From an uncultured Acidimicrobiia bacterium (GTDB taxonomy: Bacteria; Actinomycetota; Acidimicrobiia; UBA2766), in contig CAYJLW010000013.1 of assembly GCA_964370965.1 (NCBI GenBank), forward strand, positions 5,696 through 69,695: a stretch of DNA of 64,000 nucleotides. The letters are read 5' to 3'. The translations under genes and the position numbers were made by a program. Shown piece by piece: positions 7,441-59,440 of the stretch; position 1 is the stretch's first letter, and every line of letters starts with the position of its first letter. The notes under the pieces were generated by a model. It was given only the letters and a program-made list of their open reading frames with translations, had not been told where the DNA came from and did no database searches.

Positions 7441-7523
7441 GGCGGGGGCGTCGTCGGTGACACGGGCGTCACCGGTTGTGGCGGGGCCTAATCGCTGGAT
7501 ATATTGGCTATCAATACCCATGA

Positions 7524-9676: not shown

Positions 9677-11272
9677 ATGCGTGACAGCTACGACGTGATC
9701 ATCGTGGGGGCGGGTCACAACGGCCTCACCCTCGGCTGCTACCTGGCGCGGGCCGGTCTCGACGTCCTGGTGCTGGAGCGCCGCCACGAGGAAGGCGGCG
9801 GCCTCTGCACAGAGGAGGTCACCCAGCCGGGGTTCCTGCACAACATCCACGCCAACTACCACACCTTCGTCGACCTGGCACCGCCCGTGAACGATCTCGA
9901 GGTGCGCGCGCACGGCGCCGAGTACGTGCGGCCCGAGGTGCAGATGGCGTCCCTCTACCCGGACGGCACGGCGCTCACCATCCACACCGACATGGACAAG
10001 ACGCAGGCGTCCATGGCCCGCTTCTCGGAACGGGACGCCGAGACCTTCGGCCGCCTCCACCGGGAGGCACACGGCTACATCGACCTCCTCCTGGGCACCC
10101 TCATGTACCAGCCGCCCATGTCGGTCAAGGAGCTCACCAAGGCGCTGGCGTCCTTCGGCGTCGAGGACCGCTCGGAGTTCCTGTCCGTGAAGCTCCGCCG
10201 CGAGTCGATCAACCAGTTCCTCGACCGCCACTTCGAGAGCGACAAGGTCAAAGCGCACCTCGCCTTCCACGGGGCCGTGTGCTCGTACACCAACGACGTC
10301 CCGGGCCTGGCGATCGGCTACCCGCTCCTGATCGGCAAGATCAGCAACTGGCACGTGTGCGTGGGCGGCTCGCACCGTCTCGCCCACGCCCTCTGGCGGG
10401 ACCTCGCCCAGCACGGCGGCACGATGGTGTCCTGTGCCGAGGTGTCCCGGATCCTCGTCGACGGCGGCCGTGCCGTCGGGGTGCGCCTCGCCGACGGCAC
10501 GGAGATCGCCGCCCGTCAGGCCGTCGCCTCCACGGTGTCGGTGGAGCAGACGTTCCTGGAGTTCCTCAACGCCTCGGCGACCTCGGAGGAGTTCACGCAG
10601 AAGGTCAAGACGGAGGTGCAGCACAAGGACTGGACGCTGTTCTCGGTGCACCTCGCCATGAACCGCTTCCCCGAGTACACGGCGGCGGCCTTCGACGAGG
10701 ACGTGAACCGGGCATGGGTCGTGAACCTGGGCTACGACAGCCTCGACGCCCTGAACGCCGACTGGGCCGCGATACGGGCGGGCGGCCTGCCCGAGCCGAG
10801 GCCCAACGCCGCGGTGAACAGCCTCTACGACCCCACCGACGCCCCCGCCGGATGCGCCACCGGACTCCTGCGCCAGTTCGCCCCCTTCGCCCTCGCCGAC
10901 GGCGGCGAGGGCGCCTGGGAGAAGGCGGGGCGCTGGTACGGCCAGCGTTGCATCGAGGCCTGGCGGGAGTACGCCCCGAACCTCACCGACGACGCCTTCG
11001 TCGAGTGGGCCGTGGACACCCCCCTCGACATCACCCGCAAGCTCCCCAACATGCCCCGGGGGGACTGGATGATGGGCGAGATCAGCCTGGACAACATGCT
11101 GGACGAGCGGCCCCTCCCGGAGCTCGGCCAGTACAAGACACCCGTGGAGCGCCTCTACATGGCGGGTTCCACGCAGCATCCCCACGGCTTCATAACGTTC
11201 GGCCCGGGCTACAACGCCCTCCAGGTGATCGCCGACGACCTCGGCGTCGACAAGTGGTGGCGCAAGATCTGA
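9677..11272 (+). CDS. CrtI/phytoene-desaturase-family FAD-dependent oxidoreductase (paralog A2)
   Basis: YDVIIVGAGHNGL...ERRHEEGGG; C-terminal AGSTQHPHGFITFGPGYNA. Confidence 0.85.
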   Translation: MRDSYDVIIVGAGHNGLTLGCYLARAGLDVLVLERRHEEGGGLCTEEVTQPGFLHNIHANYHTFVDLAPPVNDLEVRAHGAEYVRPEVQMASLYPDGTALTIHTDMDKTQASMARFSERDAETFGRLHREAHGYIDLLLGTLMYQPPMSVKELTKALASFGVEDRSEFLSVKLRRESINQFLDRHFESDKVKAHLAFHGAVCSYTNDVPGLAIGYPLLIGKISNWHVCVGGSHRLAHALWRDLAQHGGTMVSCAEVSRILVDGGRAVGVRLADGTEIAARQAVASTVSVEQTFLEFLNASATSEEFTQKVKTEVQHKDWTLFSVHLAMNRFPEYTAAAFDEDVNRAWVVNLGYDSLDALNADWAAIRAGGLPEPRPNAAVNSLYDPTDAPAGCATGLLRQFAPFALADGGEGAWEKAGRWYGQRCIEAWREYAPNLTDDAFVEWAVDTPLDITRKLPNMPRGDWMMGEISLDNMLDERPLPELGQYKTPVERLYMAGSTQHPHGFITFGPGYNALQVIADDLGVDKWWRKI

Positions 11273-23821: not shown

Positions 23822-25627
23822 TCAGATGGGCATCCGATAACCGAAGAACTCCTGGTCCTCGTTGTACCCGCCCTGTCCGGCACCGAGGCGGTCGAAGCTT
23901 TCCACGAGCTCGATGGCCTCGATCCACTTGACCTGCTTGAAGCCGAGCTCGACCTCGTCGCGCAGCCGGAGTGGCGCGCCGTAGGACTCCCCGAGGGGCT
24001 CGCCGTTCATCTCGTAGGCGAGGATGGTGAGCTCGTGGTACATGTTCTCGATCTTGTGGCAGTCGTAGTAGCGCCCGGTGCCGGGGGTCTCGGGGCCTTC
24101 GGCGAAGGAGTAGAAGACGACCCAGCGGGCGCCGGGGAGCGGCTCGGCGAGGGCGAGGACGTCCGACATCGCGACGCCGCCCCACTTGGCGATCCCGGAC
24201 CAGCCCTGGATGCAGTAGTGCTGGGTGACCTGTTCCCGCTTGGGCATGGCCAGCAACTCGGAGTAGGAGAGCCTGATCGGGTTGGCCACCAGGCCCTCGA
24301 TCTTGAGCGTGTAGTCGGCCCAGCCGCCGGCCCGGAGGCGCCTGTACTCCTCGGAGTCGGGAAGGTGCCCGTTGGGCCAGAAGAAGGCCGAGACGTCCTT
24401 CTCGGAATAGGTGGCCCTGGGGTCCCACCACTCCATCAGCCCCTTGATCCAGCCCACCGTCGCGGCGCCGACCTTCTGCACGGTCCGGGGCCTGCGGATG
24501 GTGAACGGGGACGCCGCCGCCCCCCAGGCGGCGCCGACGGGCAACCCCCCCCCGTAGACGGCCAGCGCCCACCCCGAGTCCGTGTTCGTGCCGAGCGTGA
24601 TGTGGTTGAGGTTCCCGACCAGGCCGGTGGCAAAGACCATCACGGTGTGCATGACGACGAAGAACACCATCCATGCCAGCACGCCGAAGTGGATCGTGCG
24701 GGCCACTTGACGATTCAGCAGTCCGGCGCCGAAGCCGAACTTCCCGGCGATCGAAGGCGCCTGCAGGAGCCCCGTGACGAATGCCAACGGCGCCGCGACG
24801 AAGATCGTCAGGAAGTACGCGAGGATCTGCAACCCGTTGAAGCGGGTGAACCCGGTGTTGGCCGGGAAGTCCAGCGACGCGTACTGGATCGCCGCGGACA
24901 GGGCGTTGGGAAACACGTCAAGTGACCGAGGGACCAGCCGTTCCCACTGGCCGCCGGCGAACAGCAACACGAAGAAGATCACGCCGTTGACGAGCCACAA
25001 CAGGTCGAAGCTGAAGTGCCACCAGCGGGCCAGGCCGACGGAGTGGCGAAACCCGGGGATACCCAGCCACCTCGGCAACGCCACCGAGTCGTCCTTTGCC
25101 GTCCACACCTGGGTCGCCTCGGCCGGGTCCTGGCGATCGGCCGGGACAGGGCCCCGGATGCGCAACCATTCACGGCCCGGTCTGCTCCCCGAGTCCAGGC
25201 TCAGGCGGGGGTGGTCGGCCAGGATCTGCAACCCGGCCCGGATGATGAACATCATGAACAACAGGTTGAAGAAGTGCTGCCAGCGCAGCCACCACGGGAA
25301 CCCTCCGTCGACCTCCGGCACGTAGGACCCCGACGTGCCCGGGTACCGGCGGATGAAGTCCCGCATCCAGTCGTAGTGACGCAGCTGCTGGGCCACGGCG
25401 ATCGACAGCACCAACCCCACCGCGACCAACGGGACCAACCACAACGAACTGAGCCACCGCCGACCCACCCGCACGAACGGCACCGTGGCCTTCTGGTCCT
25501 CCATGCCCCCCGCCCAGTCCTCCACCACGATGCGCCCGTCTAACACGCCCTGACGTTCGTGCGGATCGAGCAGCCCCTCCAGACGCGCGGCCTCGGTCTC
25601 CGGATCCGGCTCGGGTGTACCCGTCAT
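23822..25627 (-). CDS. molybdopterin-dependent oxidoreductase (sulfite-oxidase/YedY-like catalytic domain) fused to an N-terminal polytopic membrane domain
   Basis: The N-terminal 400 aa have at least 6 hydrophobic helices. The C-terminal domain has the Moco-oxidoreductase block HYCIQGWSGIAKWGGV...GAPLRL. Confidence 0.75.
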   Translation of the reverse strand: MTGTPEPDPETEAARLEGLLDPHERQGVLDGRIVVEDWAGGMEDQKATVPFVRVGRRWLSSLWLVPLVAVGLVLSIAVAQQLRHYDWMRDFIRRYPGTSGSYVPEVDGGFPWWLRWQHFFNLLFMMFIIRAGLQILADHPRLSLDSGSRPGREWLRIRGPVPADRQDPAEATQVWTAKDDSVALPRWLGIPGFRHSVGLARWWHFSFDLLWLVNGVIFFVLLFAGGQWERLVPRSLDVFPNALSAAIQYASLDFPANTGFTRFNGLQILAYFLTIFVAAPLAFVTGLLQAPSIAGKFGFGAGLLNRQVARTIHFGVLAWMVFFVVMHTVMVFATGLVGNLNHITLGTNTDSGWALAVYGGGLPVGAAWGAAASPFTIRRPRTVQKVGAATVGWIKGLMEWWDPRATYSEKDVSAFFWPNGHLPDSEEYRRLRAGGWADYTLKIEGLVANPIRLSYSELLAMPKREQVTQHYCIQGWSGIAKWGGVAMSDVLALAEPLPGARWVVFYSFAEGPETPGTGRYYDCHKIENMYHELTILAYEMNGEPLGESYGAPLRLRDEVELGFKQVKWIEAIELVESFDRLGAGQGGYNEDQEFFGYRMPI

Positions 25628-26704: not shown

Positions 26705-26756
26705 CGCTGACTCCTCGTGTGCGGGGGGCCTTGCGTTCCCCGCCGTTCCGTGTGAT

Positions 26757-26770
26757 AGTACTGCAATACT
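26757..26770. promoter_or_regulatory. imperfect palindrome AGTACTGCAATACT in an AT-rich divergent promoter region
   Basis: 12 of 14 positions are self-complementary around a TGCA core. Sits between the divergent SDR (25841-26704, minus) and the ADC-like/molybdoenzyme operon (plus). Local GC is far below the genome average. Confidence 0.4.
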
Positions 26771-26800
26771 GAACATGGATTCATTTTTCGGAGGCACCCC

Positions 26801-27562: not shown

Positions 27563-30508
27563 GTGAGCGCACCAGACCCCTCCCGCCCCGGCGAAGCCCG
27601 CCACCGCTCCCGCTGGACATGGGACAGCGTGGCGTGGGGCAGCCACTGCGTGGACTGCTACCCGGGCAACTGCAGCTACCGCCTGTACGTGCGCGACGGC
27701 AAGGTCGTGCGCGAGGAGGTCGCCGGCGCGGGCGAGCCCTCCTCGGGCTCCCTCCCTGACGGCCTCCCCCTGGGATGCAACAAGGGGGCGGCCTGGAGCG
27801 CCCAGATCGAGGGCCCCGACCGCGTACGCTGGCCGATGCGCCGGGTGGGAGAGCGGGGCTCGGGCGCGTGGGAACGCCTGAGCTGGGACGACGCCCTCGA
27901 CGCCGTCGCCGACGTCCTCGTCGACACGATCGAGGCCGACGGACCCGGCGCCATCCTCCGGGAGGGGACACCCCAGGTCGGCGTCGGTCTCGCCCCGGAT
28001 CGTTTCGTACACCTCCTCGGCGGCACCGTCACTGACCTGAACGGGGCGATCAACGACTTCGCCAACGGCCTGCACATCACGTTCGGGAAGTCCAACCCGG
28101 TCTACTCGCCCCGCAGCGTCTTCGAAGCCGACGTCCTCCTCCTCTGGCACATCAACCCCGCCTACACGCTGATTCCCGTCTACCACTGGATGACCGAGGC
28201 CCGCTACCGGGGCGCCGAGGTCGTCCTCTTCTCCCCCGACGTGAACCCCACCCACAGCCACGTCGACTACGCGGTGCCCGTACGCTGGGGCGCCGACGCC
28301 GCGGTCGTCCTCGCCATGTGCCAGGTGGTCGTCGCCGAAGGCCTCGTCGACGAAGGCTTCGTCGCGACCCAGACCGACCTCTCGCTGCTCGTGCGCACCG
28401 ACACGGAGCGGTTCCTGCGCGAGAGCGACGTCGTCGCCGGCGGCCACGAGGAGCAGTTCTTCCACCTCGACCCCGGGCGGGGCGTCGTCCCCGCCGACCG
28501 CGCCAACCTCCTGTGCGACTACGAACCCGCTCTCCGGGGCCGGACGACGGTCACCCTCGCCGACGGCGGCGAGGTCGTCGTGGCGCCCCTGTTCGAGCGG
28601 GTGGCGTCCCTCCTCGCCGACTACACGCCCGAGGCCGCCGCCGAGGTGGCCGGCACGCACCCGGAGACGATCCGCACCGTCGCCCGCAAGGTGGCCGCCG
28701 GACGCACGTATGCCGCCATCGGAGGGGGCGCCGAGAAGCTCTACCACGGCGACCTCTTCCAGCGCTCCGCCCACCTCCTCCTCGGCCTCACCGGGAACTG
28801 GGGTCGCCCCGGTGCCGGGACGACGTCGTGGTCGGTGCCTCATGGCGACGGCTCGCTCCTCACGTCCGCGAAACGGACCCCCGGCCCCGAGGGCGCCGAA
28901 GTCGTCCTCGCCCTCCTCGAGAGCCTCGCCGCCGCCGTGAAGGCGTCGGACCCCACGATGTCCGACGAGCTCGCCGCCTTCGCCCTGCACCGGGGACCCC
29001 TCGCCGACAAGGCCATGGTGCCCCCGTTCTTCTTCTGGTATTGGCACGCCGGGTTCGCGGAGCGGCTCAACAACACCGCCTGGGGCGACCCCACGATGAA
29101 ACGCACCTATGACGAGTACGTCCAGGAGGCCCTCGACGAGGGCTGGTGGGCCGGCTTCGACCGCCCCGGCCCCGACGACACCCCCCGGGTCCTGATCGAG
29201 TGTGGAGGCAACATCCTGCGCCGCACCCGGGGCGGTGGTCGGCTCCTCCTCGAACACCTCTGGCCGAAGCTCGAGCTGATCGTCACCATCGACTTCCGCA
29301 TGTCCCTCACCGCCCTGCACTCCGACGTCGTCCTGCCCGCCGCCCAGCCCTACGAGAAGGTGGGCACGCACATGCCCTCCATGGAACTCACCCTCTCGGA
29401 CAGCGCCGTGGAACCCGTCGACGACGCGCTCCCCGAGTGGGAGATCTTCGCCGGTCTCTGCCGGGCCGTCGAGCGCCGCGCCGCCGCGCGGGGCCTCGAG
29501 CACTTCCGCCACTCGGGCGGCGCCCGGCGCCGCTACGACAAGCTCTGGGCGGCCTTCACCCTTAAAGGCGTCCTACGCACGACCGAGCACGTCGTGGACG
29601 AGACCATCCGGGACGCCGCCTACGCCGGGATCCTTCCCGAGGGCACGACGCTGGAGTCCCTGCGGGAGTCCGGGCGCATGAACTTCACCGGCTGGGGCGT
29701 GACCGCCTTCGGCCAGAGCCAGGCAGCGGACTGGCAGGACGACGTCCGGACCGTCGTCCCCTGGAGCAACCACGTCGAGAAGGGCGACCCCTACCCCACC
29801 CTCACCCGCCGGGCGCAGTTCCTCGTCGAGCACCCCTGGTTCGTGGAAGCGGGCGAGGACCTCCCCTGCCACAAGGAGCCCCCGCAGATGGGCGGCCCCG
29901 GCCGCTACTGGATGACCACCGGGCACAACCGCTGGTCGATCCACGCCATGAACATGGCGAACCCGTGGCTCATCCAGACCCACCGGGGCGAGCCCCACGT
30001 CGTCGTCCACCCCGAGGACGCCGCCCGCGAAGGCATCGCCGACCACCAGCCGGTGCGGGTCTCCAACGAGGCGGGCTCCTTCGTCGTGCGGGCGAAGCTC
30101 TCCCCCACCCAGCGCCCCGGCGGCGTCACCGTCTACTCGGGCTGGGACGGCCACCAGTTCCCGGGCTGGAACCCGCCCAGCGACGTCGAGCCCAGCCTCG
30201 TCAAGCACCTCGGACTCGCCGCCGGCTACGGCCACCTCCGCTACGGACCCATGGAGTGGCAGCCCGTCCCCTGCGACCGCCCCGTCGCCGTCGACATCGA
30301 GGCCGTCGTGGAGGGGGTGGGGGGGGGGGTGGCGCCCCCCCCCCCCCCCCGGGCCGGGGGGCCCGCGGCCCCCCCCCCCCCCCCCCCCCGCTCGCCCGGG
30401 GGCGCCGGCGGCACCACACCACCACACGACCGGGATGGCGGTGGCGCCGGAGACGAAGGTCCTTGCTCACGAGCGGCCAACCGTGTTCCACCGCCGTGGC
30501 ATAGATGA
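27563..30508 (+). CDS. molybdopterin bis-MGD oxidoreductase (DMSO-reductase superfamily) with N-terminal Cys-cluster motif; 3' end unresolved
   Basis: The N-terminal HCVDCYPGNCSYRLYVRDGKV...LGCNKG is an FeS-type Cys motif with atypical spacing. Size (about 920 aa) and the C-terminal molybdopterin-dinucleotide-binding domain fit the family. There is no twin-arginine signal. The reading frame continues through G/C homopolymer tracts at 30313-30400 as poly-Gly/Pro. The truncated paralog at 7015-7440 suggests the true stop lies near 30315. Confidence 0.75.
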   Translation: MSAPDPSRPGEARHRSRWTWDSVAWGSHCVDCYPGNCSYRLYVRDGKVVREEVAGAGEPSSGSLPDGLPLGCNKGAAWSAQIEGPDRVRWPMRRVGERGSGAWERLSWDDALDAVADVLVDTIEADGPGAILREGTPQVGVGLAPDRFVHLLGGTVTDLNGAINDFANGLHITFGKSNPVYSPRSVFEADVLLLWHINPAYTLIPVYHWMTEARYRGAEVVLFSPDVNPTHSHVDYAVPVRWGADAAVVLAMCQVVVAEGLVDEGFVATQTDLSLLVRTDTERFLRESDVVAGGHEEQFFHLDPGRGVVPADRANLLCDYEPALRGRTTVTLADGGEVVVAPLFERVASLLADYTPEAAAEVAGTHPETIRTVARKVAAGRTYAAIGGGAEKLYHGDLFQRSAHLLLGLTGNWGRPGAGTTSWSVPHGDGSLLTSAKRTPGPEGAEVVLALLESLAAAVKASDPTMSDELAAFALHRGPLADKAMVPPFFFWYWHAGFAERLNNTAWGDPTMKRTYDEYVQEALDEGWWAGFDRPGPDDTPRVLIECGGNILRRTRGGGRLLLEHLWPKLELIVTIDFRMSLTALHSDVVLPAAQPYEKVGTHMPSMELTLSDSAVEPVDDALPEWEIFAGLCRAVERRAAARGLEHFRHSGGARRRYDKLWAAFTLKGVLRTTEHVVDETIRDAAYAGILPEGTTLESLRESGRMNFTGWGVTAFGQSQAADWQDDVRTVVPWSNHVEKGDPYPTLTRRAQFLVEHPWFVEAGEDLPCHKEPPQMGGPGRYWMTTGHNRWSIHAMNMANPWLIQTHRGEPHVVVHPEDAAREGIADHQPVRVSNEAGSFVVRAKLSPTQRPGGVTVYSGWDGHQFPGWNPPSDVEPSLVKHLGLAAGYGHLRYGPMEWQPVPCDRPVAVDIEAVVEGVGGGVAPPPPPRAGGPAAPPPPPPRSPGGAGGTTPPHDRDGGGAGDEGPCSRAANRVPPPWHR
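30313..30400. repeat. G/C homopolymer tract cluster (G11, C16, C24 runs) at convergent gene ends
   Basis: Directly visible: gggggtgggggggggggtggcg, then C16, then gggccgggggg, then C about 24. Both flanking genes lack proper stop codons here. Confidence 0.8.
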
Positions 30509-36076: not shown

Positions 36077-36271
36077 CGGTGTCGGGCCGTCGTCCCGGCC
36101 CCGCCCAGAACCGGCCCCGCTCCCGGGCGGGCCAGGTGAGCGTGGTGGCGGTGAAGTTGTCGGTGCCCGGGGCGAATCCCTGCGTCTGATACCCGTCGGG
36201 ATCCCCCCCAAAACGCCCCGGGCTCCGGCTTCGGGGGGGGAGTTCCGCTCCCCCCCCGGACTCTCACGCCG

Positions 36272-36933
36272 CTACTCGGCGTCCTGGCGTCTCAGACGGA
36301 GGACGCAGCCTGCGCGCCTCGGGTCCCGCACTTCGAGGTCGACGACGGTGACGCCTCCGCCGAGGGCCTCGAGGATGCCCTCGGCCAGGCCGCGGTGGAG
36401 AGCGCAGACAGTCTGCGGGTCCTGTGTGGCGGCGCTGGAGAACGCGCAGCGCTCCAAGACCAGCTCCACCGTGGCGTCCTCACACACCCGGCGACTGGGG
36501 GCGAAACCCTGCCGGGCGATCTCGCGTTCCAGGACGTCCACCGCGTCCCCTGCGGGCCCCCCGGCCCCCGTCGGGCCCGCCGCCCCGGCAGAGCGACCAA
36601 CCCTGCGGGGGTCCTCTCCCGTGCGGATGATCTCGAGCAGCCAGCCGGCGAGGCGTTCGTAGGCGTCCGGCCCGCCCCACTGCGCTGCGAGGTCCGGAAC
36701 AGGCCGGTAGCGCAGGGGAGGCCGGCCCGGCCGGCCGCCGGACTCGGTCTCCTCGACCAGGAGGTCCGCGGCCACGAGACAGGCCAGGTGCTGGCGCACG
36801 GCGTTGTGGTTGAGGCCCACGAGCTCGGTGAGGGCGGCGACCCCGACCGGCTCGGGCGACTCGAGAATGTGACGGTAGATGAGGTGACGCGTGGGATTGC
36901 CGAGCGCCCGGGCCTGCTCCTGCAGCGTGCTCA
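36272..36933 (-). CDS. ArsR-family HTH transcriptional regulator with extended C-terminal domain
   Basis: GTG at 36933. ALGNPTRHLIYRHI...GLNHNAVRQHL is a winged-helix HTH of the ArsR type. An additional C-terminal domain of about 100 aa contains Cys residues. Confidence 0.65.
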
Positions 36934-38160
36934 CGGCGCCTCCCCCGCCGGCACCCCGCGAGCGGGCACCCGCTCCCCCCGGCCGGCCAAGAGAAGGCCG
37001 AGCCGGACTCCCGTGTCTGCCACCCACAGCCCCGTCACGACCCACGCCGCCACGCCGGCGCCCGCGGCCCATGCCACAGCAGCCACGTTCGCCGCCGCGA
37101 GGCCCGGCCAGCTCCGGGTGAGGCGGAATCCGGCCCCCAGCCGCTCGTGGCCCCCGCCCCGCAGCACGGGCCCCAGGTAGGCGAGGGCGCCCGCCAGGAT
37201 CTGGCCGTAGCCCCCGACGAGGAGACATCCCAAGATCCTCGGGTCCGCTACCGGTCGCCCCGCCCCTGCGCGGGCCCCCGCCCACACGACAGCGCCCGCC
37301 CACCACGCCGTCCCGGCGAGGATCTGCACCAAGCGGGGTCCTGCCCAGCGGATCTGCTTCCCGCCCAGGCGGGGGAGGATCCCCGCCGTGGCGACCACGC
37401 CGGCGCCATAGGCGAACAGCCCGGCCGCCGCGAGGCCGCCGTTCCCGGCCAGGGCGCCCCCGGCCGCCAGGGCGCCGCCGGCGGCGAGGGTGCCGAGGAG
37501 AGCGCCCCGGTTCCGGGGAGTGGCCCGGGGACTGGGCTTCACGCGCGCCTCCGTAGCCGTGAAGAACGGCAGCGTGCCCGCCACCACAAGGCCCACGAGG
37601 CCGAGCAGGTTGAGGATGAGGTGGCCGTCACGGACGGCGTCGGTGCCCCGGACCGCCCCTGTCGCCACGAGGATCCCGACCGCGCAACCCGCGACCCCGA
37701 AGAGGACCGCTGTCTCATAGAACAGGGCCGACGGGCGGAAGCGGTCCGCCACGCCGTTCGCCACCGTCCAGCGCACCATTCCCGCCCAGAGGACGAGAGC
37801 GCCGACGACCAGGGCCCCCGAGACACCCGCGAGCGCCGGCAAGCGGAGCTCCCGGGCGAGGAGGAGACCGCCGGCGCCGCCGGCGAGCAGCCAGCGCTGC
37901 GTGGCCGCCAGGGCGCCGGGGGGAGCGGGGCCCGCCGACCAGGTGACCGCAAAGAGGAGGCCGGCACCGGATATCGCCAGCAGGAGCGCCCCCACGCCAA
38001 AGACGTGCACCGGTGCCCAGGGACCGGTGCGATGAGGGACCGCGGCAACGACGGGAGTGGCCGCCACGAAGGCGACGGCGACGAGCAGGGTGGCGCGGGC
38101 CTGACCCTGGGCGCGCACGACGCGACCGGCGTCGGCGCCATCCCGTCGGTCGCCGGCCAC
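36931..38160 (-). CDS. polytopic integral membrane protein, unknown function
   Basis: 409 aa, about 10 hydrophobic segments. Stop overlaps the regulator start. Confidence 0.5.
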   Translation of the reverse strand: MAGDRRDGADAGRVVRAQGQARATLLVAVAFVAATPVVAAVPHRTGPWAPVHVFGVGALLLAISGAGLLFAVTWSAGPAPPGALAATQRWLLAGGAGGLLLARELRLPALAGVSGALVVGALVLWAGMVRWTVANGVADRFRPSALFYETAVLFGVAGCAVGILVATGAVRGTDAVRDGHLILNLLGLVGLVVAGTLPFFTATEARVKPSPRATPRNRGALLGTLAAGGALAAGGALAGNGGLAAAGLFAYGAGVVATAGILPRLGGKQIRWAGPRLVQILAGTAWWAGAVVWAGARAGAGRPVADPRILGCLLVGGYGQILAGALAYLGPVLRGGGHERLGAGFRLTRSWPGLAAANVAAVAWAAGAGVAAWVVTGLWVADTGVRLGLLLAGRGERVPARGVPAGEAP

Positions 38161-38168
38161 AGCCGACC

Positions 38169-38489
38169 CTACCGGCGGAATCCGAGCGTGGCGGCGGCCT
38201 CTTCCTCCATGCGCTCGGGGGTCCAGGGTGGGTCCCAGACGACGTTCATCTCGACGCCCCCGGGCGCGGCGTCACCGAGGGACTGCGTGACCACGGCCTT
38301 GGCCTGCTCGGGCAGGCTGTCGGCGATCGGACACCCCGGCGTGGTCAGGGTCATGTCGATCACGACCTTGTCGTCTTCGGCGCGAATGTCGTAGACGAGA
38401 CCCAGAGCGACGACGTCGAGGCCGAGCTCCGGGTCGTAGACGAGGCGGAGCGCCTCTCGGGCGCGCTCGACGAGGTCGGGCGTGGTGCT
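38169..38489 (-). CDS. DUF59/MIP18-family FeS-assembly protein (SufT-like)
   Basis: LVYDPELGLDVVALGLVYDI...MTLTTPGCPIADSL is the hallmark block. ATG at 38489 behind AGGAGGAACG. Confidence 0.75.
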   Translation of the reverse strand, partial: STTPDLVERAREALRLVYDPELGLDVVALGLVYDIRAEDDKVVIDMTLTTPGCPIADSLPEQAKAVVTQSLGDAAPGGVEMNVVWDPPWTPERMEEEAAATLGFRR

Positions 38490-39871
38490 CATCGTTCCTC
38501 CTGGGCGGTCACGGGTGTCGCAAGGGCGGGTATGTCGAGGACTGTGGCGCTGCGGCCTGCCCGGCGGGGGCCGAATCCCAGGTTGGAGAGGGCGAGGACC
38601 CCTGTGAGCGAGAGCAGGAGGCCGCCCGCCGCAAACGCCCAGGAGGTCGCCGCGGCCGCCCCCGCGAGCAGGAACCCCACTCCGAGCGTCATGGACGCGA
38701 GTGTGAGGCGGGCCACCCGGCCGTCGAAGAGATCGGCGAAGAGGAGGGGCTTTCCGTCGGGACGCATGAGGAAGCCCCTTTCCCGGAGCTTCGTCCAAGA
38801 GATGAACGGGACGATCTTGTGGGCGTGGCCGACGACGGCGAGGCCGAGCCAGCCGAAGAGGCCCAGCACCTCCACGGTGAGGAGGCGCTGGCGGGCGGTG
38901 ACGGTGACGGGGGCGAGGGCGCCCACGACCCCTGCCGCCACGGCGACGAGCAGGGAGAGGGCCGAGGCGAAGATGAAGGCGTGGAGGAGCTCCAGGGGCC
39001 GGCGGCGGTTGCGCACGTACGCCGCGAGGGCGCCGAGATGACATGCCAGACCCGCGGCCACCCCCAGGCCACCGAGGACGCAGAGCCACCGCCACTGCAA
39101 GAGGAGTCCGCCCACCAACAGGGTGACGCCGGTAGCGGCCAGCCAGATCCCCCACCGCGCCGGGCTCCTCTCGACATGGGCGAGAAGGAACATCGGCCAG
39201 AGCTTCTCGGCCACGGCCATGTAGGTGATCCCCAGCCAGCCGAGGAGGCCGAGGTGGGCGTGGGCGAGGATGCGCACCGGGAGCAGGGAGAACCAGCCGG
39301 TGTCGAGGTCGAGGGCGTAGACGACGCCGAAGCCGGCAGTTGTCACGAGGAACGCGAGGGAGAGGCGGATCCCGACGATCGGGGTTCCCTTGCCCCGGCC
39401 CGCCAGAGGTCGCGAGAGGTTCCAGACCATGAGGAGGATCGCCGTCCAGGCCAGCGCCCCGGCCGTGGCCGCCAGCCAGAGGACACCCCACTCCAGCGAG
39501 CCGGCGAGAACCCAGACGGACGGGACGAAGAGCGCCGCCGAGACCCCGGCGACACGGACCGACCGCAGGGGTGCCATGCCGATGACGGGTGAGAACTGGT
39601 GGAGTGCTCCCAGCACGGAGGTCGTGAGGAAGGCGAGCATGCTCAGGTGGAAGACGCCCGCCACCCGCATCGACGTGGGTGCGGTCACGGCCCGGGAGGC
39701 GACCTCGGCGAGGCCGATCCCCCCCACGACGAGGCCCACAGCGCCCGCGGCCAGGAATGTGAGGGGGACGCGGGCGGGGGGGATCGCAGGGGACGCGCCC
39801 GGGCCGGCCGGCACCCCGGGGGGTGAGGGCGTACCGGCCGGCGGGGCGAGGGACGGATCGGGTTCGCTCAT
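38489..39871 (-). CDS. polytopic integral membrane protein, unknown function
   Basis: 460 aa, more than 10 hydrophobic helices. Translationally coupled on both sides. Confidence 0.5.
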   Translation of the reverse strand: MSEPDPSLAPPAGTPSPPGVPAGPGASPAIPPARVPLTFLAAGAVGLVVGGIGLAEVASRAVTAPTSMRVAGVFHLSMLAFLTTSVLGALHQFSPVIGMAPLRSVRVAGVSAALFVPSVWVLAGSLEWGVLWLAATAGALAWTAILLMVWNLSRPLAGRGKGTPIVGIRLSLAFLVTTAGFGVVYALDLDTGWFSLLPVRILAHAHLGLLGWLGITYMAVAEKLWPMFLLAHVERSPARWGIWLAATGVTLLVGGLLLQWRWLCVLGGLGVAAGLACHLGALAAYVRNRRRPLELLHAFIFASALSLLVAVAAGVVGALAPVTVTARQRLLTVEVLGLFGWLGLAVVGHAHKIVPFISWTKLRERGFLMRPDGKPLLFADLFDGRVARLTLASMTLGVGFLLAGAAAATSWAFAAGGLLLSLTGVLALSNLGFGPRRAGRSATVLDIPALATPVTAQEER

Positions 39872-40224
39872 CCGGGGGTCAGGGCCAGGAAGCGCCGCGT
39901 GCGGCGGGCGTCTTGCAGGCCTCGGGTCACCTCCTCCAGGGTGCGGCCCAGAGGCACGTGCTCGAGCAGCCTGCCGAGGGCCTCGTCGTCGACTTCGTCA
40001 GAGGCTACTTCTCGTGCGGCGGCCTGGAATCGGGCGGCGAAGCCGTGGCCGCCGATCTCCCCGATGGTGACCTCGACGCGCTCGCCGTCGGCCACGCCGG
40101 CGAGGCGTTCGTCACCGAGGCAGATGAGGCGGTCACCCTGGGCGGCGTAGCGGGCACTGGCACTGTGGCCGTTGACCCGCAGCGACACGGTGTAGCGGCC
40201 CTTCACTTCACTCGGCAACGCCAT
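39868..40224 (-). CDS. hypothetical protein (first gene of a three-gene operon)
   Basis: 118 aa. Its stop overlaps the downstream membrane-protein start. A perfect palindrome lies 20-45 bp upstream. Confidence 0.45.
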   Translation of the reverse strand: MALPSEVKGRYTVSLRVNGHSASARYAAQGDRLICLGDERLAGVADGERVEVTIGEIGGHGFAARFQAAAREVASDEVDDEALGRLLEHVPLGRTLEEVTRGLQDARRTRRFLALTPG

Positions 40225-40242
40225 CGTGGGCTCCTGTCGTGC

Positions 40243-40270
40243 GGTATTTCTAGTAACTAGTAGAAATACC
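40243..40270. promoter_or_regulatory. perfect inverted repeat GGTATTTCTA-gtaactag-TAGAAATACC (candidate operator)
   Basis: 10-bp perfect arms with an 8-bp spacer, AT-rich in a 70% GC genome, immediately upstream of the 39868-40224 operon start. Confidence 0.55.
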
Positions 40271-40348
40271 TCACGAGGTCAAGGGCGGCCGGCTCAGCGG
40301 CGCCGGGCACTGCGGCCCGCGTCGTGCACACGAGACGACGTGTGAGGC

Positions 40349-41542
40349 TCACCCGAGCGGCCGGGGCTGACCGAGGTGCACGCAGCGGACGCCGCCCACC
40401 TCCATCTCGGCCACACAGAGGTTGCAGGGAACGCAACGGGACGCCGTCGCCCCGCCCGTCTCCATGCGGGACACGAGGTCGGGTTCGGCGATGAGCGCCC
40501 GACCCATGGCGACGAACTCGAAACCGTCCTCCATCGCCTGCGTAACGCCGGCGAGGCTCTTGACGCCTCCCAGAAGGACCACGGGGACCTCCACGGCATC
40601 CTTGACCTGCCGGGCGCCCTGCAGGAAGAAGAGCTCCGTGAAAGGGATCTCCTTCACGACGAATCGCCCGAAGAGGCCGAGGCCGACGCGGGCGAGGGGC
40701 TTGGTCTCGTGCGCGACCATCTCTTTGACCGGCACGTTGCCCCGGAGCATGTAGAACGGCGTCCGGCTCGTGAAACCGCCGCTGGGGACTATGGCGTGCA
40801 CCCCGGCACCCTCGAGGGCCCGGGCCACGGCGACGGACTCCTCCAGGGTGAGGCCGCCCCGGAAGCCGTCGGTGAGGTTGAGCTTGGCCAGGACCGCTGC
40901 CCGCTCTCCCACCTCCTCGACCACACGTCGGACGGTGCCCACGGGCATCCGCATCCGGTTCTCCAGGCTCCCGCCCCAGCGGTCCCGGCGCCTGTTCGTG
41001 TACGGGCTCAGGAACTGGCTGAGGAGGTAGCCGTGGCCCACGTGGACCTCGACGGCGTCGAAGCCCGCTTCCACGGCGAGATGCGCCGCCCGGCCGTAGT
41101 CGTCCACGAGCGCATCGATCTCGGCCTCGCCGAGGGGGCGCGAGAAGCTCATGCCGTAGGCGTTGAAGACCCGCGACGGAGCCACCGGCGTCGCCCCGAT
41201 CGTCTTGCGGTCGGCGAAGTACCCGGCGTGGCCGAGTTGCAGGGCGGCCGCCGCCCCCTCGGCGTGCACGGCGTCGGTGACCTCGCGGAGGTGCGCAACG
41301 AGCTCAGGGCGCATGTGCATCTGATCGGCGAACGTGAGACCGAGGGGCGACACCGAGCAGTAGGCGACCGTGGTCATCCCGGCTCCCCCCGCCGCTATCG
41401 CCCGGTGGTGCGCGACGAGGGCTGCGCCAGGCACGCCACCGGGCGACATCCCCTCGAAGGTGGCCGCCTTCACGAAGCGGTTGCGCAACTGCACAGGACC
41501 GATCCGCCCCGGAGTGAAGGCCTTGTGTACCGCCGTCGCCAT
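40349..41542 (-). CDS. Old-Yellow-Enzyme-family NADH:flavin oxidoreductase (2,4-dienoyl-CoA-reductase-like N-terminal module)
   Basis: TIM-barrel OYE blocks (HGAHGYLLSQFLSP-like HVGHGYLLSQFLSPYTNRR) and a C-terminal CVPCNLC...C cysteine cluster. ATG at 41542. Confidence 0.8.
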   Translation of the reverse strand: MATAVHKAFTPGRIGPVQLRNRFVKAATFEGMSPGGVPGAALVAHHRAIAAGGAGMTTVAYCSVSPLGLTFADQMHMRPELVAHLREVTDAVHAEGAAAALQLGHAGYFADRKTIGATPVAPSRVFNAYGMSFSRPLGEAEIDALVDDYGRAAHLAVEAGFDAVEVHVGHGYLLSQFLSPYTNRRRDRWGGSLENRMRMPVGTVRRVVEEVGERAAVLAKLNLTDGFRGGLTLEESVAVARALEGAGVHAIVPSGGFTSRTPFYMLRGNVPVKEMVAHETKPLARVGLGLFGRFVVKEIPFTELFFLQGARQVKDAVEVPVVLLGGVKSLAGVTQAMEDGFEFVAMGRALIAEPDLVSRMETGGATASRCVPCNLCVAEMEVGGVRCVHLGQPRPLG

Positions 41543-42776: not shown

Positions 42777-44180
42777 ATGGCCGAAGTCGTCGACGTCCAC
42801 ATGCGCCAGAGCGACGCCTTCGCCTGGTACATGGAGGACGACCCGCTGTTGCGCTCCACGATCGTCGCCGTGGCGACGCTCGACCGGGCCCCCGACAGGG
42901 ACAGGTTCATGGAGGCGATGGAACGGGCGAGCCGCATGATCCCCGCCTTCCGCCAGAAGGTCGTGACCCCTCCGATGCGCCTCGCCACTCCCCGCTGGAC
43001 CTACGACCCCGACTTCGACCTCTCCTGGCACGTCCGGCGGGTCGAGGCCCCCGCCCCCAAGACGTTCGACACCGTCCTCCAGTTCGCCCGCAACACCGGC
43101 ATGACCGGCTTCGACCGCGCGCGGCCCCTGTGGGAATTCACCGTCGTCGAGGGCCTCGAGGACGCCCGGGCGGCGATCGTGATGAAGGTCCACCACTCCC
43201 TCACCGACGGCATCGGCGGCATGCAGCTCGCCATGCAGATCATCGACTTCGACCGCCAGGGCACCGATCGCGGGCCCCTGCCCGACGCCCCCGAAGGGGA
43301 GGACGTGGGCGCCGTCGACCTCATCCGCGACGCGATCGCCTACGACTGGGGCAGGGTGTACGAGGCCGCCCGTCACAGCGCCGGCGCCGCCCTTCCCACC
43401 GCGGTGGCGGCCGCCCGTCACCCGTTCCAGACAGCGTCGGAGGTCCTGCGCACGGTGCGCTCGGTGGCCCGCTTCGCCAGGCCCGTGAGCGAGACCCTCT
43501 CCCCCGTGATGACCGAGCGCCGCCTCGCCTGGCACTACGAGGTCCTGGACATCCCCTTCGACCGCCTCAAGGCGGCGGCCCGCGCCGGCGACTGCACGCT
43601 CAACGACGCCTTCATGGCCGGGGTACTGGGGGGGATGCGCCGCTACCACGAGCACCACGGCGCCCCCGCCGACGAGCTCCGCGTGACGATGCCGATCAGC
43701 CTTCGCAAGGCGGACGACCCCGCCGGGGGCAACCGCATCACGCTGGTCCGCTTCCAGGTTCCCGTCACCCTCACCGACCCCATCGCCCGCATGCAGGCGA
43801 TCGACTCCATCACGAAAGCCTGGCGCAACGAGCCCGCGATCCCCCTCTCCAACATCGTGGCCGGGGCGCTCAACCTTCTGCCCACGGGCTACACGGGCGG
43901 GATGCTCAAGCACGTGGACTTCCTCGCCAGCAACGTCCCCGGGGTGCCCATCCCCGTGTTCGTCGCCGGCGCGCAACTGGAGCGCTACTACGCTTTCGGC
44001 CCCACCATCGGGGCGTCCGTGAACATCACGCTCATCTCCTACTGCGGCGTCTGCTGCATCGGCGTGAACACGGACACGGGCGCCGTGGCCGACCACGAGG
44101 TCTTCCTGGACTGCCTCCGCGAGGGCTTCGAGGAGGTCACGTCCCTGGCCGATGACGTCCCCGCCGCCGGGCGCACGTGA
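42777..44180 (+). CDS. wax ester synthase / diacylglycerol acyltransferase (WS/DGAT)
   Basis: Catalytic HHSLTDGIGG (HHxxxDG) motif. About 467 aa, typical family size. Confidence 0.8.
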   Translation: MAEVVDVHMRQSDAFAWYMEDDPLLRSTIVAVATLDRAPDRDRFMEAMERASRMIPAFRQKVVTPPMRLATPRWTYDPDFDLSWHVRRVEAPAPKTFDTVLQFARNTGMTGFDRARPLWEFTVVEGLEDARAAIVMKVHHSLTDGIGGMQLAMQIIDFDRQGTDRGPLPDAPEGEDVGAVDLIRDAIAYDWGRVYEAARHSAGAALPTAVAAARHPFQTASEVLRTVRSVARFARPVSETLSPVMTERRLAWHYEVLDIPFDRLKAAARAGDCTLNDAFMAGVLGGMRRYHEHHGAPADELRVTMPISLRKADDPAGGNRITLVRFQVPVTLTDPIARMQAIDSITKAWRNEPAIPLSNIVAGALNLLPTGYTGGMLKHVDFLASNVPGVPIPVFVAGAQLERYYAFGPTIGASVNITLISYCGVCCIGVNTDTGAVADHEVFLDCLREGFEEVTSLADDVPAAGRT

Positions 44181-46506
44181 CAGCCCAACCGGTCGCCCGG
44201 CCGTGACCGAACCGCTTCGGCGGCGCTTCGTCGTGCGGGGCGTCGTACAGGGCGTCGGCTTCCGGCCCTTCGTGCACCGCCTCGCCGAGGATCTCGGCCT
44301 CTGCGGTTTCGTGGGCAACGACACCACGAGCGTCTTCGTGGAGGTCGAGGGCCTCGGGGGAGCCCTGGTGGACTTCGCCTCCAGACTCCGCTCGGAGGCC
44401 CCCGCCCTCGCCCGCATCGAGGACGTGAGGGCGGAGGACGTGCCCGCGCTGGGCGAGCCGGGCTTCGCGATCGTGCCCAGCCGCCACGAGCCCGGGACCG
44501 TCACACTCGTCCCCCCGGACGTGGCCACGTGCCCGGACTGCCTGGCGGAGCTTCGCGACCCGGCGGACCGCCGCTACCGGTACCCGTTCGTGAACTGCAC
44601 GAGATGCGGGCCCCGCTTCACGATCATCCGGGCCCTGCCCTACGACCGCTCCCGGACGACCATGGCGGCCTTCGCGCTCTGCCCCGACTGCGCCACGGAG
44701 TACGGGGACCCCAGGGACCGCCGCCACCACGCCGAGCCCGTCGCCTGCCCCGCCTGCGGACCCCGCCTCGAATTCCTCCCGGGGGCGGGGACGCCCGGTC
44801 ACCGCTCCGCTCGCGGAGCTCCGGCGCTGGAGGCCGCCCGCGACGTCCTCGCCGCCGGGGGGGTCCTGGCTGTGAAGGGTCTCGGCGGCTACCACCTGGC
44901 GTGCGACGCCGCCGACCCGGCGGCCGTGGCCCGTCTCCGGGAACGCAAGCGCCGGGAGGCCAAGCCCCTCGCCGTGATGGTCCGGGACCTCGCCGCCGCC
45001 CGGGCCCTCGCCGGCGTGGACGCCGCCGCCGCCGCCGTCCTCACGAGCCCGGCGCACCCCGTCGTCCTCCTCCGCAAACGGCACCGTCACGGCCCCGCCG
45101 AGCTCGCCGCTCCCGGCAACCCCGACGTCGGGATCATGCTCCCGTACACGCCCCTCCACCACCTCCTCCTGGAACCGGTCGCCGGTGCGCCCGCCGTCCT
45201 CGTCATGACGTCCGGGAACCTCTCGGACGAGCCCATCGCGTACGACGACACCGACGCCCGGAAGCGGCTCGCCCCCCTCGCCGACGCCTGGCTCGTCCAC
45301 GACCGGCCGATCCACGTGCCCTGCGACGACTCCGTGGTTCGGGTCCTCGACGGCGAGGTGTCTCCGATCCGACGCTCCCGGGGCTATGCCCCCTACCCCG
45401 TGGGCCTCCCGTTCGACGCCCCACCCACCCTCGCCGTGGGTGGGGAGGTCAAGAACACGTTCTGCCTCGCGGCGGGGAGGCACGCCTGGATGAGCCAGCA
45501 CATCGGGGACATGGCGGACCTCGAGACCCTCCACGCCTTCGAGCACTCCGTCGCCCGGCTCACGGACCTGTTCCGCGTGACGCCCGGGCGCGTGGCCGGG
45601 GACAGGCATCCCGGCTACCTGTCCGCCCGCTGGGCGCGGGAACGGGCGGCAGCCTCAGGGGTCCCTCTCGTCACCGTCCAGCACCACCACGCCCATCTCG
45701 CCGCCCTCCTCGCCGAGCACGGCCGGCCCCCCGGGGAACCCGCCATCGGGATCGTCTTCGACGGCGCCGGATACGGTGACGACGCCACGGTCTGGGGGGG
45801 CGAGGTCCTCGTGGGCGACTACGCGGGGTTCCGCCGTTTCGCCCACCTCGCGCCCGTCCCCCTGCCCGGCGGGGACGCCGCCGTGCGCCTCCCCCGCCGC
45901 ATGGCCCTCTCCCACCTCTGGGCGGCCGGAGTGCCGTGGGACGCCGACCTCCCCCCGTTCGCCGCGGCGGGCGCCGCGGAAAGCCGCGTGCTCGCCCGCC
46001 AACTCGAGACCGGATTCGCCACCACGCCCACGTCGAGCATGGGTCGCCTCTTCGACGCCGTCGCCTCCCTGGCCGGCCTCCGCCACGAGACCACGTTCGA
46101 GGCCCAGGCAGCCGTCGACCTCGAAGCCGCCGCGGCCGGTCGGGTCGAGGACGGCTACCGCTTCTACGTCCCCGCCGGAGGTGGGCCGGTGACGCCGACC
46201 CCGGTGGTGCGGGCCGTCGCCGGCGACGTCCGTGCCGGGACGGACCCTTCACTGGTCGCCGCGAGGTTCCACGGGGCCGTCGCCGACCTGGTCCTCCAGG
46301 CGGCGCGGCGCGCCCGGGACGCCACAGGCGTCCACGCAGTCGGCCTCACGGGCGGCGTGTTCCAGAACGGCCTCCTCGCCCGCAGCGCGGCCGCACTCCT
46401 CGCCGGCGACGGTTTCAAGGTCCTGGTCCACAAGGAGGTCCCCCCCAACGACGGGGGCATCGCCCTCGGCCAGGCGGCGGTGGCGGCGTTCACGCCCCTG
46501 GTGTGA
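44152..46506 (+). CDS. hypF: [NiFe]-hydrogenase maturation carbamoyltransferase HypF
   Basis: Acylphosphatase domain VRGVVQGVGFRPFV. Two Zn-finger pairs (CPDC...CTRCGPR, CPDC...CPACGPR). YrdC block AVKGLGGYHLACDA. Kae1-like C-terminal GGVFQN. Start is ATG at 44152, overlapping the WS/DGAT end, or GTG at 44213. Confidence 0.85.
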   Translation: MTSPPPGARDSPTGRPAVTEPLRRRFVVRGVVQGVGFRPFVHRLAEDLGLCGFVGNDTTSVFVEVEGLGGALVDFASRLRSEAPALARIEDVRAEDVPALGEPGFAIVPSRHEPGTVTLVPPDVATCPDCLAELRDPADRRYRYPFVNCTRCGPRFTIIRALPYDRSRTTMAAFALCPDCATEYGDPRDRRHHAEPVACPACGPRLEFLPGAGTPGHRSARGAPALEAARDVLAAGGVLAVKGLGGYHLACDAADPAAVARLRERKRREAKPLAVMVRDLAAARALAGVDAAAAAVLTSPAHPVVLLRKRHRHGPAELAAPGNPDVGIMLPYTPLHHLLLEPVAGAPAVLVMTSGNLSDEPIAYDDTDARKRLAPLADAWLVHDRPIHVPCDDSVVRVLDGEVSPIRRSRGYAPYPVGLPFDAPPTLAVGGEVKNTFCLAAGRHAWMSQHIGDMADLETLHAFEHSVARLTDLFRVTPGRVAGDRHPGYLSARWARERAAASGVPLVTVQHHHAHLAALLAEHGRPPGEPAIGIVFDGAGYGDDATVWGGEVLVGDYAGFRRFAHLAPVPLPGGDAAVRLPRRMALSHLWAAGVPWDADLPPFAAAGAAESRVLARQLETGFATTPTSSMGRLFDAVASLAGLRHETTFEAQAAVDLEAAAAGRVEDGYRFYVPAGGGPVTPTPVVRAVAGDVRAGTDPSLVAARFHGAVADLVLQAARRARDATGVHAVGLTGGVFQNGLLARSAAALLAGDGFKVLVHKEVPPNDGGIALGQAAVAAFTPLV

Positions 46507-48567: not shown

Positions 48568-48588
48568 ACATGGCAATCCTGTATTCGG
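48568..48588. promoter_or_regulatory. AT-rich repeat CTGTATTCGGTTGTATTACAG (TGTATT direct repeat within a CTGTA/TACAG inverted repeat) upstream of the BrnTA-like module
   Basis: Seen directly in the sequence. Lies in the low-GC leader 20 bp upstream of the toxin-gene start. Confidence 0.35.
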
Positions 48589-48606
48589 TTGTATTACAGT
48601 GGCAAG

Positions 48607-58813: not shown

Positions 58814-59440
58814 ATGCAGCAGATCACGAAGCTTTTCGAGCGCCTGTTCACCTGGGCGATCGACCATCTCCCCATGCCCGCCGGCCTCCGGCGCACCCTC
58901 TCGGGCCGGCGCGACGTCGTCGAGGAGATGGCGAAGTTCCTCTTCACCGGCGGCGTCGCCACCCTGGTGTTCTCGGTCGCGTTCAACGGCGGATGGTGGA
59001 TCCTGGAGCGTGCCGGTGTGTCCGCCGAGATCCTCGACAAGACGTGCTTTCTCCTCGGCCAGTTCGTCGCGGTTCTCGTGGCCTACTTCATGTCGTTCAA
59101 GTTCGTGTTCACCAACGACAGCGGCCGCAAACGCTTCACGGAGGCCGTCCTCTTCTTCGGGCTGGCGGCGGTGGCGATCGCATGGGGCATGGGCGCCCTC
59201 GCCCTCTTCGAGGCGATCGTGGGCCACCACCTCGGCCAGCTCGAGGCGTTCCTGGTGAGCGCGGTGGCGATCGTGACGTCCTGGGGCCTACGCTTCTTCC
59301 TCGCCCGCAACTTCGTGTTCCGGGCGCACCTCGACCGTCCCGCCGTGAGCGTCGTCACCGAGCTCGCCCACGTCTCCGAGGAGGCCCACGAGGGCGACTC
59401 CTCCGGCAACGAGCCCGCCGAGCGCGCCGGTCGGCAATAG
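58814..59440 (+). CDS. GtrA-family membrane protein (polysaccharide-synthesis associated)
   Basis: Four hydrophobic helices with the GtrA-like pattern (KFLFTGGVATLV...FVFRAH). Confidence 0.6.
   Translation: MQQITKLFERLFTWAIDHLPMPAGLRRTLSGRRDVVEEMAKFLFTGGVATLVFSVAFNGGWWILERAGVSAEILDKTCFLLGQFVAVLVAYFMSFKFVFTNDSGRKRFTEAVLFFGLAAVAIAWGMGALALFEAIVGHHLGQLEAFLVSAVAIVTSWGLRFFLARNFVFRAHLDRPAVSVVTELAHVSEEAHEGDSSGNEPAERAGRQ

Follow-up and report, generated by a model that had tools for sequence, protein, structure and literature searches.

The 64,000-nucleotide window analysed here, from an uncultured Acidimicrobiia bacterium, carries at positions 40243-40270 a perfect palindrome, GGTATTTCTAGTAACTAGTAGAAATACC, and the question raised by this locus is which protein recognises it and which genes are controlled through it. 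An earlier note on the same DNA had described the palindrome at this position (GGTATTTCTA-N8-TAGAAATACC, perfect arms of 10 + 10 nt), had placed it in front of an operon of three genes and, seeing no cognate regulator gene nearby, had named no binding factor. Five coupled genes were found instead, the last of which (36272-36934) encodes a helix-turn-helix regulator resembling SufR and ArnR, whose homologues' genes are preceded by the same motif in 68 loci. Very probably, the palindrome is the autoregulated operator of this SufR/ArnR-type iron-sulphur (Fe-S) regulator, which would repress a nitrosative- and redox-stress module until its cluster is modified. This proposal is favoured because the five-gene operon ends in the regulator gene, the signatures of the regulator are invariant, the motif is enriched around regulator genes and a site precedes the regulator in those 68 loci. 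It is further favoured because the A/T flanks of the site are conserved, identical arms recur at another locus (L078), and the gene families of the operon are targets of the motif elsewhere.

The palindrome, its operon and the regulator

The palindrome spans 19-46 bp upstream of the minus-strand ATG at 40224, and a repeat finder extended it to a dyad with 19-nt arms and 2 mismatches (40237-40255 and 40258-40276). The extended dyad (40237-40276) is the probable full footprint, of ~30-40 bp; SufR and ArnR protect ~30-37 bp of DNA (bioRxiv 10.64898/2025.12.26.696629). A 16-bp core, TCTAGTAACTAGTAGA (40249-40264), differs at one position from TCTAG-N6-CTAGA and is flanked by ATTT and AAAT, with conserved A/T dinucleotides at 40245-40246 and 40267-40268; none of the dyad features is assigned a strand. 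As the earlier note had pointed out, the palindrome stands out from its surroundings, with 60% A+T compared with 28.9% in the window (71% GC). It goes beyond what chance would produce: no other perfect dyad in the window combines arms of 10 nt or more with an A+T content of 60% or higher, and dyads of this kind were absent from 60 first-order Markov simulations of the window. The stronger claim that it is the strongest dyad in the window did not hold, since GC-rich perfect dyads with arms of 11-12 nt are also present (10468-10502, 8365-8397 and 36232-36258). By chance, ~3 perfect 10-nt dyads of any composition are expected in the window. No second copy of the exact palindrome pattern was found in the 64 kb, even allowing up to 3 mismatches.

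Downstream of the palindrome lie five tightly packed minus-strand genes, encoding a protein of 118 amino acids (aa), a 460-aa membrane protein, a DUF59 protein, a 409-aa membrane protein and, last, the 220-aa regulator. Three of the junctions overlap by 4 nt, and the gap between the DUF59 gene and the 409-aa gene is 8 nt. On the upstream side, the operon is separated from an Old Yellow Enzyme (OYE) gene (40349-41542, minus strand) by the 124-bp spacer that houses the dyad.

The regulator (36272-36934, minus strand) is a COG2345-type protein with a winged helix and the motifs R47-Q48-H49, G70-R71-P72 and C163/C177/H180/C210. More than 1000 full-length homologues with ~50-56% identity were found, nearly all in metagenome-assembled genomes (MAGs) of Acidimicrobiia and other Actinomycetota, plus Rhabdothermincola salaria; the best identity among GTDB representatives was 56%. 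Across 33 aligned homologues, R47-Q48-H49, G70-R71-P72, C163, C177, H180 and C210 are invariant, and the ligand pattern of the window regulator reads C163-X13-C177-X2-H180-X29-C210. Its N-terminal winged helix matched Pfam HTH_20 (E 2.7e-5, under the gathering score) and the NCBIfam ArsR/SmtB model (E 3e-6, under the cut-off), and a weak Pfam V4R match was also obtained. When the regulator profile was compared with PDB sequences, ArsR structures only were recovered, over the N-terminal part. In the AlphaFold2 (AF2) model (predicted local distance difference test, pLDDT, 90), RQH is located in the recognition helix alpha3 (residues 43-55), whereas GRP belongs to the loop of the wing, which joins strands 59-63 and 74-78. 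Foldseek related the N-terminus to the ArsR winged helices 2p4w and 6j05, and the C-terminus to the Bet3/TRAPPC3 structures 6aq3, 2c0j, 1wc9 and 1wc8 (probability 1.0; template-modelling score 0.4-0.55 on the target). A TRAPPC3-like similarity has been named for the sensor domains of both SufR and ArnR, and the SufR study names 1wc8 (bioRxiv 10.64898/2025.12.26.696629; PMC12343034).

The traits described for Mycobacterium tuberculosis (Mtb) SufR and the SufR-like family are a 50-RRH-52 motif in alpha3, a GRP AT-hook in a long wing, and three cysteines (Cys3) plus a metal-binding residue at Cys2+3, which may be Glu, His, Asn, Asp or Cys. In SufR, moreover, A/T-rich flanks around the palindrome are absolutely required, as they also are in ArnR, and the sensor domain is TRAPPC3-like (bioRxiv 10.64898/2025.12.26.696629). 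The window regulator combines an ArsR-type winged helix, an Arg/His motif in alpha3, a GRP AT-hook in the wing, Cys3 with a ligand at Cys2+3, a Bet3/TRAPPC3-like sensor and a dyad operator flanked by A/T. Because these signatures and the predicted fold match the family description, the protein is placed in the SufR-like (COG2345) class with ArnR-like details (His as fourth ligand, X13 spacing), having been set beside ArnR and SufR by their published descriptions. The presence of a [4Fe-4S] cluster in it is inferred by analogy with these relatives.

Resemblance to SufR of M. tuberculosis, Streptomyces and cyanobacteria thus extends over the R-x-H motif of alpha3 (middle residue Q here, R in Mtb SufR), the GRP AT-hook in the long wing, the Cys3 arrangement with a metal-binding residue at Cys2+3 and the three-domain layout. 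Shared features also include a dyad with conserved A/T-rich flanks and a regulator that is autoregulated and lies in an operon with its targets, as is predicted here. SufR differs, however, in its Glu ligand, its C-X12-C spacing and its position at the head of the sufBCDSU operon, whereas the window regulator has His, is encoded last and controls no suf genes. In addition, the central palindrome of SufR shows little sequence specificity, in contrast to the TCTAG/CTAGA half-sites described below, which are more than 90% conserved.

Closer in several details is ArnR of Corynebacterium glutamicum, in which Cys179, Cys193 and Cys223 (C-X13-C-X29-C) and a conserved His accompany a [4Fe-4S] cluster whose nitrosylation releases the DNA (PMC12343034). 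ArnR represses narKGHJI and hmp and responds to nitric oxide (NO) (PMC12343034; Nishimura et al. 2008 and 2014, as cited there). Common to both proteins are an ArsR/MarR-type winged helix, a dimerisation helix, a TRAPPC3-like sensor, C-X13-C, a third Cys and a His near the cluster, and both operators are AT-rich dyads of ~25-30 bp enclosed by GG...CC (for ArnR, the hmp site GGATT-TAATCTAATTAAATAAATCC listed among the oligonucleotides of PMC12343034). The operator core, by contrast, is of the TAAT/ATTA type in ArnR and TCTAG-N6-CTAGA here; the second Cys spacing is X31-32 here instead of X29; and the lineage is Acidimicrobiia-type Actinomycetota rather than Corynebacterium, in a comparison made by described features. 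A functional parallel is offered by NsrR, an Fe-S repressor of the Rrf2 family that NO frees from an AT-rich dyad over promoters of globin and NO-detoxification genes, as is proposed here, but the Rrf2 fold is unrelated to an ArsR-type winged helix joined to a Bet3-like domain and the operator differs. The window regulator also resembles MsvR of methanogens, in which an N-terminal ArsR-like helix-turn-helix is fused to a Cys-containing redox sensor of V4R/Bet3 fold, but MsvR is archaeal and has another Cys pattern and operator. MsvR is not known to carry an AT-hook.

Conservation of the site and its link to the regulator

The recurrence of the motif was assessed in 80 loci of other genomes, dozens of them of Acidimicrobiia type, chosen solely for encoding a regulator homologue, taking ~8 kb either side of each regulator (1.13 Mb in total). 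Cultured relatives with a homologous regulator locus include Aciditerrimonas ferrireducens (L030), Ferrimicrobium acidiphilum (L038) and Rhabdothermincola salaria (L004). With up to one mismatch, TCTAG-N6-CTAGA occurred 93 times in these loci, compared with 9 times in shuffled sequence. From these sites a symmetric 30-bp matrix was built, with the consensus TW-n-t-TCTAG-y-N4-r-CTAGA-a-n-WA, and it detected 197 sites of at least 12 bits in the 80 loci and 1 in the shuffles. The dyad of the window scores 36.6 bits on this family-wide matrix, and no other site in the 64 kb reaches 8 bits. Half-sites TCTAG and CTAGA are more than 90% conserved, and the flank positions -3/-2 and +19/+20, which lie outside the selection pattern, are ~97% A/T and carry 1.6 bits each. 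The centres of the two half-sites are separated by 11 bp, and each half-site has its A/T dinucleotide ~5 bp farther out.

When the best open reading frame (ORF) downstream of each site was taken as its target and the targets were clustered, the largest cluster was the regulator itself, a site being located just upstream of its gene in 68 of ~81 loci. The core typically ends 30-45 nt before the regulator start codon, and a TANNNT hexamer is often found at the site centre. At L078, the same arms as in the window, GGTATTTCTA-N8-TAGAAATACC, surround a different centre upstream of that locus's own regulator. Placement before the regulator gene in so many loci is the signature of an autoregulated cognate operator. 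It is this evidence that bears on a different reading, according to which the dyad is the operator of another, unlinked transcription factor and the operon-encoded regulator acts elsewhere. AT-rich dyads do serve many regulator families, and the pairing of this protein with the site is a prediction. Nevertheless, the motif stands before the gene of the regulator itself in loci whose neighbourhoods differ widely, a pattern by which comparative analyses commonly recognise a cognate autoregulated site, and a dyad with obligatory A/T flanks ~5 bp outside its half-sites fits the winged-helix and AT-hook mode of the family. Control by an unlinked factor is thus considered very unlikely. As a separate observation, three overlapping operator-like sites in 10-bp steps were noted in a Solirubrobacterales MAG (L069, 6983-7018), upstream of an Ndh2-like (Pyr_redox_2) gene.

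The way in which the site is conserved also bears on whether the dyad works in RNA, either as a terminator for the OYE gene or as a hairpin in the 5' untranslated region governing translation or stability of the 118-aa gene. The dyad does lie in the interval that separates the OYE stop (40349) from the start codon that follows (40224); in the transcript it would fold into a 10-bp hairpin, extendable to 15 bp, that is retained in the centroid structure; and the whole intergenic region folds with z = -2.3. However, the A/U content of the stem is 70%, the sequence after it (GCACGACAGGAG) contains no U-tract, and the dyad was not called in a terminator scan. Conservation operates at the sequence level, half-sites and A/T flanks being fixed and the centre variable; compensatory changes are absent, and in many autoregulatory sites the two half-sites are asymmetric, so that a stem would be disrupted. 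Besides, OYE is the neighbour in just 1 of the 80 loci. A terminator, the role that the earlier note had named as the competing one, was rejected given the AU-rich stem, the missing U-tract and conservation that is sequence-level rather than structural; a riboswitch or small RNA at the dyad was likewise rejected, as no Rfam match was obtained at E up to 1. A function in RNA is therefore extremely unlikely, and the proposal that a repressor at this position would occlude the promoter is retained.

The earlier note had suggested defining a regulon by genome-wide searches with the exact sequence and with degenerate variants. The degenerate matrix derived from related loci revealed the regulon, whereas the exact-sequence search did not: the exact arms gave 4 matches in JGI metagenomes (L087-L090), on contigs of 39-47% GC. 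These matches were rejected as relatives of the operator, since the four low-GC contigs carrying GGTATTTCTA-N8-TAGAAATACC contain no regulon genes. Flanking sequence is common to L087 and L088, and likewise to L089 and L090.

Predicted regulon and proposed mode of action

Genes behind the sites form a recurrent set. DUF2249 accounts for 48 targets in 23 loci and homologues of the 460-aa family for 16 targets in 13 loci; further recurrent targets encode 1-Cys peroxiredoxin, truncated globin, NirK-like cupredoxin/multicopper proteins, FNR-like reductases, Ndh2-like and CopD-like proteins. In one very frequent arrangement, a divergent spacer between a 460-aa-family gene and a DUF2249-DUF59 pair holds one or two sites. 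In 22 of the loci, a DUF59 gene is found close to the regulator gene, most often in a DUF2249-DUF59 pair that follows a site. In a Pfam census of the 145 first ORFs adjoining sites, 49 families were found, including DUF2249 (34 ORFs), Hemerythrin (19), AhpC/1-Cys peroxiredoxin (6), NirK-like, FNR-like and Pyr_redox_2 proteins (3 each), CopD and Globin (2 each), and HPP and MsrB (1 each). Domains of nitrate reductase (nar), flavohaemoglobin or suf proteins were not among the 25 most frequent of these families, and no flavohaemoglobin-type combination was seen in the census, in which Bac_globin and FAD/NAD-reductase domains were counted separately.

These contents point to nitrogen-oxide and oxygen-radical stress. 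In Haloferax, DUF2249 proteins are induced during denitrification, and in Thermus they are associated with nitrate respiration; a link between DUF2249 and the oxidase superfamily is reported as cited in PMC11218638 (Pei et al. 2014). As in ArnR, the predicted regulon centres on nitrogen-oxide handling, with globin and nitrite/NO enzymes. It departs from the ArnR regulon in that no nar operon or flavohaemoglobin was seen among the frequent targets, which comprise truncated globin, FNR-like reductase, hemerythrin, DUF2249, peroxiredoxin and an oxidase-like membrane protein instead. Judging from the analogy with ArnR and from the regulon content, NO would most likely be the trigger. The earlier note had envisaged a metal- or redox-responsive membrane system; a system that is membrane associated and responds to redox or small molecules is consistent with the present data, but given the regulon content a metal is a less likely signal than NO or redox state.

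The regulon is also informative on the view that protein and site are correctly paired but that the regulator is SufR proper, sensing Fe-S demand and controlling a DUF59/SufT-like accessory module rather than responding to NO. The architecture of the regulator is that of the SufR family, and DUF59 recurs in the regulon with sub-threshold similarity to SUF-associated and SufT models. On the other hand, the operon lacks sufBCDSU, and no SUF domain ranks among the 25 most frequent families of the census. The fourth ligand is His, which ArnR shares, whereas SufR has Glu, and the first spacing is X13 as in ArnR, not X12. Lastly, genes for DUF2249, hemerythrin, peroxiredoxin, globin and NirK-like proteins predominate in the regulon. 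SufR proper is thus an unlikely identity for this regulator.

For the favoured autoregulated operator, the following mode of action is proposed. A regulator dimer would place its two recognition helices on the TCTAG and CTAGA half-sites, and the AT-hook (G-R-P) of each wing would insert into the narrow minor groove of the ATTT or AAAT flank. The site, ending 18 nt before the start codon, would overlap the candidate -10/transcription start region, so that the cluster-bound protein would repress the five-gene operon, its own gene included. Once the Cys3-His-bound cluster is modified or lost, the regulator would leave the DNA and the module would be expressed; its members would be the 118-aa protein, an oxidase/NO-reductase-like membrane protein, the DUF59 protein and a second membrane protein. 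The putative promoter is formed by TTGACC (40282-40277) and TAGTTA (40259-40254) with a 17-nt spacer (40254-40282, minus strand); it is a weak candidate and overlaps the operator. The Shine-Dalgarno sequence AGGAG (40231-40235, minus strand) is located 6 nt before the ATG of the 118-aa gene, the minus strand 3' of the dyad reading GCACGAC-AGGAG-CCCACG-ATG.

Several points weigh against this proposal. Most of these genes would also be compatible with O2, peroxide or Fe-S status as the signal. That the protein binds the site, that it represses rather than activates, that it carries an Fe-S cluster and what it senses are all deduced, as is the position of the operator relative to the transcription start; a strict sigma-70 consensus scan called no promoter, and the best -10 candidate, TAGTTA, is without the final T. 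Furthermore, many of the 80 loci come from related MAGs, their counts not being independent events, and the site counts cover only the ~8 kb on either side of each regulator.

A more far-reaching interpretation, which is considered doubtful, is that the operator marks a new Acidimicrobiia-wide NO-stress regulon under a third functional SufR/ArnR branch. Its core effector would be a divergent protein of heme-copper-oxidase fold with DUF2249, DUF59 and hemerythrin partners, possibly a new NO (or O2) reductase with a non-canonical His pattern. It was only in 2025 that the SufR-like (COG2345) regulators came to be seen as a large family, in which, according to the study concerned, ArnR is the one member besides SufR with known targets (bioRxiv 10.64898/2025.12.26.696629). 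No description of this regulator branch, its operator or its regulon was found in the literature searched, the regulator class itself being known from 2025. The locus would supply a third branch, sharply defined in its operator, clearly autoregulated and with a coherent set of predicted targets, from an actinobacterial lineage that is mostly uncultured and has been little studied. It also connects DUF2249, DUF59, the orphan family of the 118-aa protein and a membrane protein of oxidase fold that lacks annotation with one predicted Fe-S sensor, and hence yields a concrete hypothesis in which these proteins play a role in NO/redox defence.

Structural genes and surroundings of the operon

The first gene (39868-40224, minus strand) encodes the 118-aa protein, a member of a small orphan family for which no match was found in Pfam or NCBIfam. 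The family is tiny, with ~65 clusters at 50% identity among 1.84 billion representatives, and in hhalign comparisons no relation was seen to DUF2249 or to a small ACP-like protein encoded upstream of some regulators. Its homologue in L071 is preceded by a 34.5-bit site. Members of the family were also noted directly upstream of the regulator in L003 and L071, and adjoining a hemerythrin gene on the P0006 contig.

The second gene (38489-39871, minus strand) encodes the 460-aa protein, with 12 helices and a predicted fold resembling heme-copper oxidases and NO reductases (NOR). Its predicted structure shows the 12-helix subunit-I fold of the heme-copper oxidase/NOR superfamily, a similarity that sequence searches do not detect: Pfam COX1 scored 19 bits (cut-off 34.8), and no oxidase was found when the profile was compared with PDB sequences. 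Members of the family are labelled only as hypothetical and have no Pfam domain of their own, some being fused to DUF2249. Nine His residues are invariant in the family, including H349-x-H351 in helix 10, H75 and H91 in helix 2, and H204-x-H206 in helix 6. The canonical six His ligands of heme-copper oxidases lie in transmembrane helices (TM) 2, 6, 7 (HH) and 10 (HxH); no invariant HH was seen in helix 7 of the 460-aa family.

The third gene (38169-38492, minus strand) encodes a 107-aa protein with a match to the DUF59 (FeS_assembly_P) domain. The earlier note had labelled it SufT-like; the protein scores below the equivalog cut-offs of the SufT and SUF-associated models, and there are no suf genes in the operon. 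The fourth gene (36931-38160, minus strand) encodes the 409-aa membrane protein, which has no Pfam match and remotely matches residues 164-428 of the 460-aa family, its C-terminal two-thirds (hhalign probability 72%, E 3.5e-5); the 409-aa and 460-aa proteins may be distant paralogues. Genes of the 409-aa family adjoin the regulator gene and sites in L003, L004, L005, L051, L060 and L084.

Beyond the regulator gene, the perfect GC-rich hairpin at 36232-36258 (CGGGGGGGGAG-TTCCG-CTCCCCCCCCG, 11-nt arms) lies between the convergent ends of that gene and a plus-strand gene, and is probably the bidirectional terminator of the operon. Other short islands of at least 60% A+T are found in the window at 4114-5100, 6392-6475, 7487-7527, 25240-25278, 26746-26794, 48568-48602 and 59084-59111, none of them with a match to the operator matrix; the island near 5 kb includes an imperfect inverted repeat (4965-4987 and 5003-5025). 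At 30307-30393, a long G run followed by a long C run forms an imperfect palindrome of ~40 nt per arm, which is either unusual low-complexity DNA or an assembly artefact. Close to the operon, a gene for the HypF carbamoyltransferase of hydrogenase maturation (44152-46506, plus strand) is followed by an ADH_N/ADH_zinc_N gene of the zinc-type alcohol dehydrogenase family and by an MsrA gene. Finally, in a locus of the same organism (L001, 18471-19814), two toxin-antitoxin pairs, ribbon-helix-helix (RHH)-PIN and PhdYeFM-PIN, are located a few kb downstream of the operon.
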